From Atractiella rhizophila (lineage: Eukaryota), in assembly GCA_021432655.1 (NCBI GenBank), contig MU271217.1:63638-103577 (forward strand): a stretch of 39,940 nt of DNA, in the 5' to 3' direction. A program made the position numbers and the translations under genes. Position 1 is the stretch's first letter; each line of letters starts with the position of its first letter. Below the pieces are notes generated by a model. It had not been told where the DNA came from. It worked only from the letters and a program-made list of their open reading frames with translations, and made no database searches. This document shows, one piece after another, positions 7,938-10,484 of this stretch.

Positions 7938-10484
7938 ATGAAGTCACTACTCCCCCTCCTCACTTTGGCGGCATCTTGCCTCTGCCTTCCCCAGGCGGCC
8001 AAACATGCTCTGGAAGCACGCCAAACGAATCCCAAAAGCGTATTTGCCCACTTCATGGTAGCCATTTATCGTTTCGTTTGCTGTCGTGTTCTGATAACAC
8101 GAGTGAACAGTTAGGTATCGTCAGTGTGTACACGCAAGCTGTACATTTCCTGTTACACCACAGCATGAAAGAAATCACTGATATCTTTGCGAAGGATTGG
8201 GAAACCGACATGAGGCTCGCTCAAGCAGTGGGGATTGATGCGTCTGTTTCTCCTTTCTTTTTCCTATGCTCTTCCTCACACGCTAGCAAAGCTTTGCCCT
8301 CAATATTGGCAAGGACTCGTACAATGCTGCCCAGCTCGAAAACGCGTACAATGCAGCTGCAGCGACCGGTTCGTTCTCACCCCAACGTACTGACATTGCT
8401 GAGATGTTCTATGAAGGATTTAAGGTGTTCATTGTTGAAGTTATTACGTTTTCGACTTTTACTTTCTTTTTGCCCTCTTGAGCTGGCTATCGCATCTGGT
8501 GTCAGTTCCGCCCGCTCCCGTAGTTTAGTCTGTTTTTCACCTATCTGAGGTTCATCTTTTCTTCGTTCTGTCACTCTGATGAACCTCAGGTAGGTGACTC
8601 CTCACCAACGTTCATGCAATGCTGATCTTTTCTTCGTTCTGTCACTCTGATGAACCTCAGCTTCAACATTCATCTCGTTTGATTTTGCCTACTGGACGAA
8701 CGGGGGTGCGTCCGTCCCTTCATCCTGCAGATTGATGGTAATGATGATATTCCAAGATTTTGGTACCATTTCTTCTTACCTCCAGACGTATGCGACGCGT
8801 GCTGGACAGTACAAGTACAACAATAAAGCTTTCGTTTCTACCTTCGTAGGAGGCGGGGTATATTGTCCTCCCTGATCGTATTCCATGCTAAACATGAGAG
8901 GTAGTTTGATCGGAGAGCTGTTGAGTCGTCCTCTGGAGTCCCTATATTTGCCTGCCCAAATTACCAACCCGGAGCTTTGTGCGTTACTTCCATGGTCGTC
9001 TTCTCTGTAGCCTTTGTCTGTCTAAAGGAGGCATAGCACAACGGCAGCGACGGATTGTGGGTTTTCTTGGGACGCATGGCCATCTCAGTTCGTCTTCCTT
9101 CTCCCCCCTACTACGTCCTCAACTAATCTGCGAGTGCGTTAGAGATAACCAGCCGATCAATTCGAACAAGACCACGACTACTGACATAAACTATATCAAC
9201 TCGCTCGGCGGTAAGCCATACATGATGCCCGTTTCACCTTGGGTACGAGTTTATTTTCCCGCATTAAGTGCTGATAATAACCGTTTCCCAGTTTTATACG
9301 CGTATGTGTCACTTCCTCTGCACATAAGGATGGTGCTGAAATGAAGCAGATTATGGAGGTGATACTTACAACAAGGTCGGTTTGCTTTCAGCCGCTAAAA
9401 CGGGGAGCACCACAACTTACGCAAATGATACACAGAACTGGATCTTTTACTCTGATTACCTCTGGACTCAGAGATGGGAACAAGTCCTCTCTGTCCAACC
9501 TCAATTTGTCGAAGTTCGTCTTTCCTTTCTATTAGGCGAGGAAGCCCTCTCACATAAATCATGATAGATTCTGACCTGGAACGGTACGGCTCTATGTCGC
9601 TTCTTTTCAGGAGAACAATACTCTGACGACGTTTAGATTTTGGAGAATCACACTACATTGGGTGAGTGATACCGAAGAGAAATGGTCAGTGATAACGTGG
9701 GACTTCAGACCCCTACACCCTGAGAAACCCGAGGTATATGCGCCAAACGGTCAAGACAATGGAGCAAAGAAATGGGTGCGTACTTCATCAACTCCGCTGC
9801 CCTTGATCAAGGAAGAGAATTCAGGTAACTGGGTACGCTGACTGTCTTCGTGGACTTCCTGTTGCTGACAGAGCTTCAATGCTGAAGAATGGACCACACT
9901 GCCTGGCAAGACGTTATGGTTCCCTACATCAATGCTTTCAAAGGTTATTTTTATCTCTTATCCTTATCAGCACTAATAAAGTTCCCTCGGTGGTGAGCAG
10001 CTGGCTCCACTACGCCTTCAGTCTCGAGCGATGAACTGGTGTATTACTATCGCACTTCTCCCAAGGACGCGTCTTGCTCTGATCCCGTTCCTAAACCTAC
10101 TGGCTATGTGAGTCCCTCTCCTCTCGTTGTTGTTACCATTCCGACGTGCAAATAGCAATACGACGGAGACCTGATCTTCGTCACCGCCCTTCTCACTTCG
10201 CCTGGCACTGTTATCATTACTTCGGGCTCTACGAGCACAAGCATCAATGTCGCAGCTGGCATACACACAGTCAGTGCGCCGATGGGCATTGGTGTCCAAA
10301 GCTTCGGGTTGACGAGAAACGGGGCGACTGTTTTGAGTGGAACGAGTCCTAAACAAGTAGACAGCTCCTGCACGGGCACGAATCCTGCACAGGTATCGTT
10401 GATTTATTATTCCTCCCTATACATCAACATATTGATATCAACCGTTAGCCATTTAACGCGTTCGTTGGGTCCATCAAGGCCTGA
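7938..10484 (+). CDS. Secreted glycoside hydrolase family 71 (alpha-1,3-glucanase/mutanase); many introns; one exon interrupted by an insertion
   Basis: Signal-peptide-like MKSLLPLLTLAASCLC. Spliced GH71 motifs: VFAHFM, DW..DM.LA...GIDAFALNIG, FISFDF, FVSTFVG, FSWDAWP, YMMPVSPWFYTH, KNW, ILTWNDFGESHYIG, and C-terminal FNAFVG with TGA at 10482-10484. Confidence 0.93.
8433..8668. mobile_element. 236-bp solo-LTR-like insertion (Ty1/copia-type TGTTG...CAACA ends)
   Basis: 8-bp terminal inverted repeat tgttgaag/cttcaaca, flanked by a 5-bp TSD TTCAT (8428-8432, 8669-8673). Removing the element plus one TSD restores the GH71 reading GFKVFISFDFAYW. Confidence 0.85.

Follow-up and report, generated by a model that had tools for sequence, protein, structure and literature searches.

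We examined a 39,940-nucleotide stretch of the genome of Atractiella rhizophila (GenBank assembly GCA_021432655.1, contig MU271217.1, positions 63,638 to 103,577 of the forward strand; this whole stretch is hereafter the window, its first letter being position 1), in which the fifth exon of a predicted secreted GH71 alpha-1,3-glucanase gene is interrupted by a 236-bp repeat with TG..CA ends. The most likely account is an ordinary insertion polymorphism rather than a gene saved by new splicing, that is, a recent, polymorphic and probably heterozygous insertion making a null allele beside an intact one, a reading to which we assign a probability of about 0.75. A member of the repeat family, most likely a solo long terminal repeat (LTR), would have inserted recently into exon 5 and duplicated TTCAT, and the window carries the filled form of a site whose exact empty form exists as DNA. 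With normal splicing of the unaltered intron 4, the reading frame would run into a TGA at 8479-8481 and yield 112 of 437 residues; the catalytic DxxE dyad would be missing, and the filled allele would be null. Function would be kept by the intact allele, possibly also by a GH71 paralogue, and not by a new splice.

The element occupies 8433..8668 and lies between two perfect copies of the target-site duplication (TSD) TTCAT at 8428..8432 and 8669..8673, the inserted length being 241 bp (the 236-bp element and one 5-bp TTCAT). An inverted-repeat search placed 8-bp terminal inverted repeats (TIRs) at its two ends, TGTTGAAG at 8433..8440 and CTTCAACA at 8661..8668; the element, its repeats and the duplications are given without strand. 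The codons GFKVF|ISFD of the GH71 gene are split by the element, and the frame ...AAAATG-FKVF enters it and terminates at the first in-frame stop, the forward-strand TGA at 8479-8481 (open reading frame 8287..8481). A first-pass annotation, made from the letters alone, had described an element with a TTCAT duplication that splits these codons and brings in this stop, and every coordinate of that description was confirmed in the sequence. All four homologues that cover the site (P0001, P0002, P0004 and P0006) have an unbroken FK[VML]F[IL]SFD, and the solved GH71 structure 9fnf shares the interrupted strand, FKVFISFDFAYW, letter for letter. The insertion pattern is not due to chance.

Of twelve public runs (X5-X12 having small shares), four were examined as assembled contigs: X1 and X2, best-matching DNA runs of one sample which together account for 0.75 of the sampled words, X3, an RNA run, and X4, a root metatranscriptome. 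X1 and X2 show none of the gene's intron joints and are therefore DNA. Summed word depth, which is not a copy number, was 33,343-83,831 in the three element bins of X1 against 371 in the flank (90-225x), and 25,111-40,262 against 222 in X2 (113-181x). The element is a many-copy repeat, and the contigs leave it at exactly 8433 and 8668/8669 into differing flanks, so that both depth and contig exits bear out its repetition with the same boundaries; other copies, which the first-pass annotation had proposed looking for, do exist, none of them a second copy within the 39.9-kb window. The filled copy differs from the majority of the element contigs at 3 positions (8470, 8477 and 8540), and with its perfect target duplication the insertion looks young.

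DNA contigs of both X1 and X2 join 8427 directly to 8669, skipping exactly 241 bp with five letters (TTCAT) that fit either side, and the empty site is therefore present as DNA. Together with the many copies and the exact ends, this joint upholds the earlier call of a mobile element and supplies the empty allele that had been put forward as a check on it. In X1 the joint lies on the left-flank contig itself (depth 371.2), and in X2 it lies on a separate short contig of depth 174.8, against 221.9 and 250.7 in the flanks, with 25 letters on its shorter side. The left-flank contig of X2 ends exactly at 8432, and the right-flank contigs of X1 and X2 start at 8669; with the short, lower-depth empty joint, these stops are what a fork in an assembly graph of 31-mers would leave (Logan contigs are, we take it, built with k = 31, the index text stating only 31-letter words). 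About 1% of positions separate the contigs of the two runs from the window. Position 10188 is T in the X1 contig and C in the X2 contig, X1 shows 229.5 of 347.7 at 9032, and in X2 the contigs are interrupted at 9411/9416, the site of two differences in X1. The contig stops and the depths suggest that the sample of X1 and X2 probably carries both the filled and the empty form, on two haplotypes about 1% apart. At 8911 (forward strand) the window has C, coding for Arg144 in the gene model, as do the X3 RNA and protein P0001, against T (Trp) in the empty-site DNA contigs. Arg144 was also considered as a sign of decay of the filled allele and set aside as a weak argument: although no residue is more frequent in this column than Trp, it accounts for only 41 of 134 rows, and Arg is found in 9.

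The only RNA contig that reaches the insertion site is record 19 of X3 (606 nt, depth 34.9), from which introns 5-8 and later ones have been removed. With 66 letters lying left of the joint from 8704 to 8756, it runs unbroken over 8639-8704 and crosses 8660|8661 unspliced. It keeps 8639-8668 and ends exactly 30 nt inside the element, and its C at 8911 agrees with the window but not with the empty-site contigs. Transcription of the filled allele yields RNA that keeps the right end of the element at least, although the downstream introns have been taken out. A joint from 8368 to 8661 is not listed among the contigs of any of the four runs. X4, the root metatranscriptome, covers only 9909-10392; two contigs there span 3' exons with the introns already removed and show 1 and 0 differing letters, respectively. 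RNA libraries from roots therefore contain either this gene or one very closely related to it.

The gene model, which we built and translated, spans 7938..10484 on the forward strand in 20 exons and 19 GT-AG introns, and gives 437 aa that are stop-free once the element and one TTCAT are left out. All 19 introns, packed within 2.5 kb, measure 47-60 nt, and their acceptors comprise 7 CAG, 7 TAG and 5 AAG. Fourteen of the 19 were seen removed as joints in X3 RNA contigs, introns 1-4 being without RNA cover and intron 19 unconfirmed in X3 RNA. Intron 4 (8369..8416, forward strand; GTTCGT...ACTGAC...AAG, 48 nt, phase 1) was placed by homology (T-G-FKVF); it ends 16 nt upstream of the insertion and is unaltered, with its GT at 8369, its AAG at 8414-8416 and its ACTGAC branch site 23 nt ahead of the acceptor. 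Exon 5 follows at 8417..8705 on the same strand, 289 nt long as present and 48 nt without the insertion. Intron 5 (8706..8756, forward strand), which also has an AAG acceptor (8754-8756), is removed in RNA according to the X3 joint 8704 to 8756 (GT..AG, cut +1). Three micro-exons of 10, 16 and 8 nt, at 9292-9301, 9568-9583 and 9825-9832, were seen between joints in RNA contigs.

The exon at 9637..9661 (forward strand), far downstream of the premature stop, encodes D-F-G-E. In the available part of PMC12394665, DxxE is the catalytic dyad of the GH71 family, and we assigned the exon by alignment together with that source, which in the same part gives no residue numbers around the interrupted strand. 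Residue conservation was taken from 182 aligned rows of 156 proteins, about 142 of the rows covering the interrupted strand; D224 is conserved in 146 and E227 in 148 of 150 aligned rows. A protein search returned 6 proteins at E <= 0.001 among 320 candidates. One of them, P0001 (401 aa), bears the NCBI name 'glycoside hydrolase family 71 protein [Atractiella rhizophila]' and is 100% identical to the last exon of the gene; PF03659 is listed for it, and over residues 1-400 it matches 9fnf at E 6.5e-107. Judged from PF03659, the 9fnf match and the conserved D-F-G-E, the host gene belongs to GH71. Our 437-aa model agrees with P0001 outside three places: the model is 39 residues longer at the N-terminus, has a single F in place of LRHS, and has I instead of V. 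The additional N-terminal residues (7938-8057) look, by eye, like a candidate signal peptide. As to the second difference, P0001 takes the AAG acceptor at 9027 (LRHS) and the RNA contig takes the TAG at 9036 (F).

Several points weigh against a null allele produced by a recent LTR insertion. X3 is without cover on 7900-8421, and splicing of intron 4 in the filled allele, hence the stop in the mature mRNA, was not directly seen. None of the listed X1 and X2 contigs joins the filled left junction (8432|8433) to the gene flank, so that the presence of both forms in one sample is something we infer. The four runs were available as assembled contigs and not as reads, from which rare forms are lost and in which depth is not copy number. 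No full-length parent, primer-binding site or polypurine tract was found, the 39.9-kb window having no other copy of the element, and the LTR class therefore draws on termini, duplication length and copy number. Finally, P0001 reads GFKVFISFD, though it threads exactly on the window exons, including the Arg at 8911. To read GFKVFISFD from this sequence, 241 bp must be skipped, and of the seven cuts that could do so (TT..CA, TC..AT, CA..TT, AT..TC, TT..CA, TG..AT and GT..TC) none is GT..AG. Elsewhere in the same protein VEV|LTWN needs a GT..TC junction; canonical sites give VEILTWN (9514-9583), as in homologues, and VEI with canonical sites fits the RNA contig and the homologues better than the VEV of P0001. 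Aligned transcripts of the empty allele, or a fit forced by homology, probably gave rise to the P0001 model. Models of this type, which read over a 241-bp insertion, hide null alleles and heterozygous insertions, and the case thus has a value for annotation.

As for the class of the element, TG..CA ends with a 5-bp duplication are the signature of LTRs and their integrase, and we found TG...CA within short inverted repeats (TGTTGAAG...CTTCAACA), a TSD within the range of 4-6 bp and a single-copy empty site. Two contigs from different runs extend past 8668 into related sequence with a 12-nt motif in common, as would be seen if certain copies formed the 5' LTR of something longer. From its termini, duplication length, overall length and copy number, the element is likely to be the solo LTR of an LTR retrotransposon. 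Of the earlier description as solo-LTR-like, the TG..CA ends, the TSD and the many copies stand, the parent element was not found, and the class is likely but unproven; the label copia is unsupported. That the element is instead a short non-autonomous DNA transposon, like a miniature inverted-repeat transposable element (MITE), or belongs to another repeat class, seems unlikely to us. Its shortness (236 bp), its inverted termini, its strong fold and the unseen parent retrotransposon, primer-binding site and polypurine tract would agree with such a repeat. The folding energy is -67.8 kcal/mol (z -5.6 against shuffled controls), and the element holds a hairpin at 8537..8597 with a 20-bp stem (arms 8537-8556 and 8578-8597). 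Against this, the inverted ends are only 8 bp and folding shows that the element overall is not one hairpin, the related sequence beyond 8668 is what copies acting as a 5' LTR would be expected to have, and the TG..CA ends with their 5-bp duplication point to an integrase. That combination is not known to be typical of the common fungal DNA-transposon superfamilies. Other searches were negative in their scope: the window contains 0 tRNAs, and the sole Rfam match (E 0.85; 12.5 bits, where the gathering score is 50) gave no tRNA-derived short interspersed element (SINE) or RNA family; metagenome scans with 21- and 20-letter stretches of the element returned 0 matches and then 14 loci matching at 20 letters only, which is chance; and Pfam applied to 12 long neighbouring frames found only a Mito_carr fragment and no retrotransposon proteins. 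It could also be supposed that the insertion is an assembly artefact found in no genome at this site, since the DNA contigs listed there show the empty form and P0001 reads as an empty site. This is the least probable of the alternatives, and very remote. An independent X3 RNA contig joins the last 30 nt of the element to exon 5 with the window allele at 8911, contig breaks in X1 and X2 fall precisely at 8432 and 8669, and a perfect 5-bp duplication with exact ends is an outcome of integration, not of mis-assembly. Alternatively, the LTR might act as a promoter, the RNA downstream being a 5'-truncated transcript that starts in the element. LTRs generally carry promoters, the X3 RNA contig ends inside the element, and the element is abundant in RNA contigs (541-989, against 2-40 in all but one covered gene bin). 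A stop exactly 30 nt into a repeat is, however, how a 31-mer assembly behaves at any repeat and is uninformative on a start; contigs cannot show RNA ends, and the abundant element RNA may stem from other copies. We hold this promoter origin of the RNA to be improbable.

The first-pass annotation had further proposed that the insertion is intronised and the gene still functional, the donor of intron 4 at 8369 being joined to a CAG within the element ending at 8660, so that the filled allele would still give a protein, with AST replacing GFKV. Near its right end the element does have a GCTGAT at 8621-8626, a pyrimidine-rich stretch and the CAG at 8658-8660. This CAG closes the second copy (8625..8660) of a perfect 36-nt direct repeat, found by a repeat search and made up of a pyrimidine run, CTGAT and CAG; the first copy (8554..8589) is directly followed by GTAGGT. 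Joining 8368 to 8661 gives ...AAAATASTFISFDFAYW..., which is stop-free and in frame (T-A-S-T-F-I-S-F-D; 436 against 437 residues), and that part of the proposal holds. When the intron 4 donor and 29 further GT/GC donors were paired with 9 AG acceptors at least 30 nt downstream, 8369..8660 was the only frame-keeping pair, none of the 29 donors internal to exon 5 keeping the frame with those acceptors. CTGAT motifs lie 35 and 10 nt before CAG 8660, after the pyrimidine run, and the upstream exons are without RNA cover in the runs examined. The in-frame property of CAG 8660 is nevertheless not above chance, since one frame in three fits, and skipping of exon 5 would also be in frame (421 aa). The claim of a still functional, intronised allele runs against the RNA, where the X3 contig is unbroken from 8704 back to 8639, across 8660|8661, and the joint is listed in none of the four runs. 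The rescue intron would be 292 nt long, about five times the longest of the 19 introns. The native AAG acceptor, with which the new site was said to compete, is nothing unusual: intron 4 is intact with its own branch site and acceptor, and AAG is an ordinary acceptor in this gene. The identical acceptor-like copy of the 36-nt repeat ends upstream at 8589 and would meet an immediate stop. The exchange would moreover remove conserved residues (G in 88 of 141 rows, F in 114 and K in 97 of 142, and a hydrophobic L, V, M or I in 135 of 142) from a strand that ends in a near-invariant D (141 of 142). An intact allele exists, and therefore no rescue is needed. We regard the rescue as very improbable. 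A minor rescue isoform has a similarly slight chance, as contigs drop rare forms and X3 has no cover of the upstream exons; and about as slight is the chance that a minority of filled-allele transcripts join 8368|8661 and give a 436-aa GH71 protein with some predicted activity. If they did, the polymorphic insertion would be an intron-extension event that is still segregating, and the 36-nt "intron-tail" module, present twice per family member, would predispose copies to intron capture.

Apart from this junction, the pair of GTAGGT at 8590 and CAG at 8660 (71 nt) was considered as a self-contained intron and set aside, as 170 inserted bases and the stop would remain and the joint is not listed in the runs. 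At 8587-8595 an acceptor-like CAG and a donor-like GTAGGT stand back to back, both within the 20-bp hairpin stem of the element.

The insertion polymorphism that we favour resembles the solo LTRs and LTR insertion polymorphisms of fungi, which share the TG..CA ends, short TIRs, 5-bp TSD, length of a few hundred bp, many copies and presence/absence polymorphism. It differs from them in that the element sits within a coding exon. Insertions in coding exons are usually selected against unless a second allele masks them. Elements that are spliced out of exons are likewise familiar: the transposable elements Ds and dSpm are spliced out of exons in maize, and retrotransposon 412 is reportedly spliced out of an exon of the Drosophila vermilion gene (Fridell, Pret and Searles 1990, cited in PMC4691828). 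Both cases share with ours an exon element with cryptic splice signals in or near its ends, and the junction proposed in the first-pass annotation is of this kind and in frame. In those systems, however, spliced RNA was observed, whereas our sole RNA contig at the site runs through the proposed acceptor without splicing. Transposable element insertions in exons that are partly spliced out are thus a known kind, and the insertion here is an ordinary event. A self-rescuing insertion would be of moderate interest for research on intron gain, similar cases having been known since about 1990, and the evidence here is opposite.

Introners or introner-like elements are also known, as described in the available part of PMC3488318, and to the extent that they are described there our element is like them in being a short, many-copy, gene-associated repeat whose sequence is twice like an intron's 3' end (pyrimidine run, CTGAT and CAG); it differs from them in that no GT/GC..AG pair removes the 241 inserted bases and that the element is retained in RNA. 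The pair of GT 8434 and AG 8660 leaves 14 nt and is out of frame. Having no self-contained frame-keeping splice pair and not being removed from X3 RNA, the element does not qualify as an introner. The host gene resembles the solved GH71 enzymes AnGH71C (9fnf) and S. pombe Agn1 (8yfh) in its DxxE dyad, besides the 9fnf similarity and the identical strand FKVFISFDFAYW mentioned above; the allele here, of a predicted enzyme, is interrupted, in contrast to these. The importance of the case is limited: it offers a clean case, open to dating, in which a young repeat family that seems to be active still disables a single allele of a glucanase of the cell wall. The host is a root-associated basidiomycete, and the filled and the empty form are both recoverable.

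A few further observations concern the gene and its surroundings. A joint from 9184 to 9728, skipping 543 nt (CA..AA, 38 letters on the shorter side), occurs in X1, X2 and X3 alike; it may come from a paralogue, and P0004 is a second GH71 of Atractiella rhizophila. At 10388-10500 the X1 DNA contig stops past 10476 and the X3 RNA contig continues into other letters, and at 10388 X3 is without 30 nt, where removal of intron 19 would take out 56 nt; the window and runs X1 and X3 thus seem to have different 3' ends of the gene. Elsewhere in the window, a 608-bp tandem repeat of 99.8% identity lies at 992-1599 and 1596-2203, and a 680-N run at 38480-39159 is an assembly gap. Two tandem 5.25-kb copies of 94.3% identity (24691-29905 and 29931-35155), with a 25-N gap (29906-29930) between them, may represent two haplotypes that the assembly failed to collapse and set in tandem, or else a genuine duplication. 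Of the 12 long frames tested around the gene, a single one, an open frame at 21845-22639, has a Pfam match, to a mitochondrial-carrier repeat (PF00153, E 4.5e-06).

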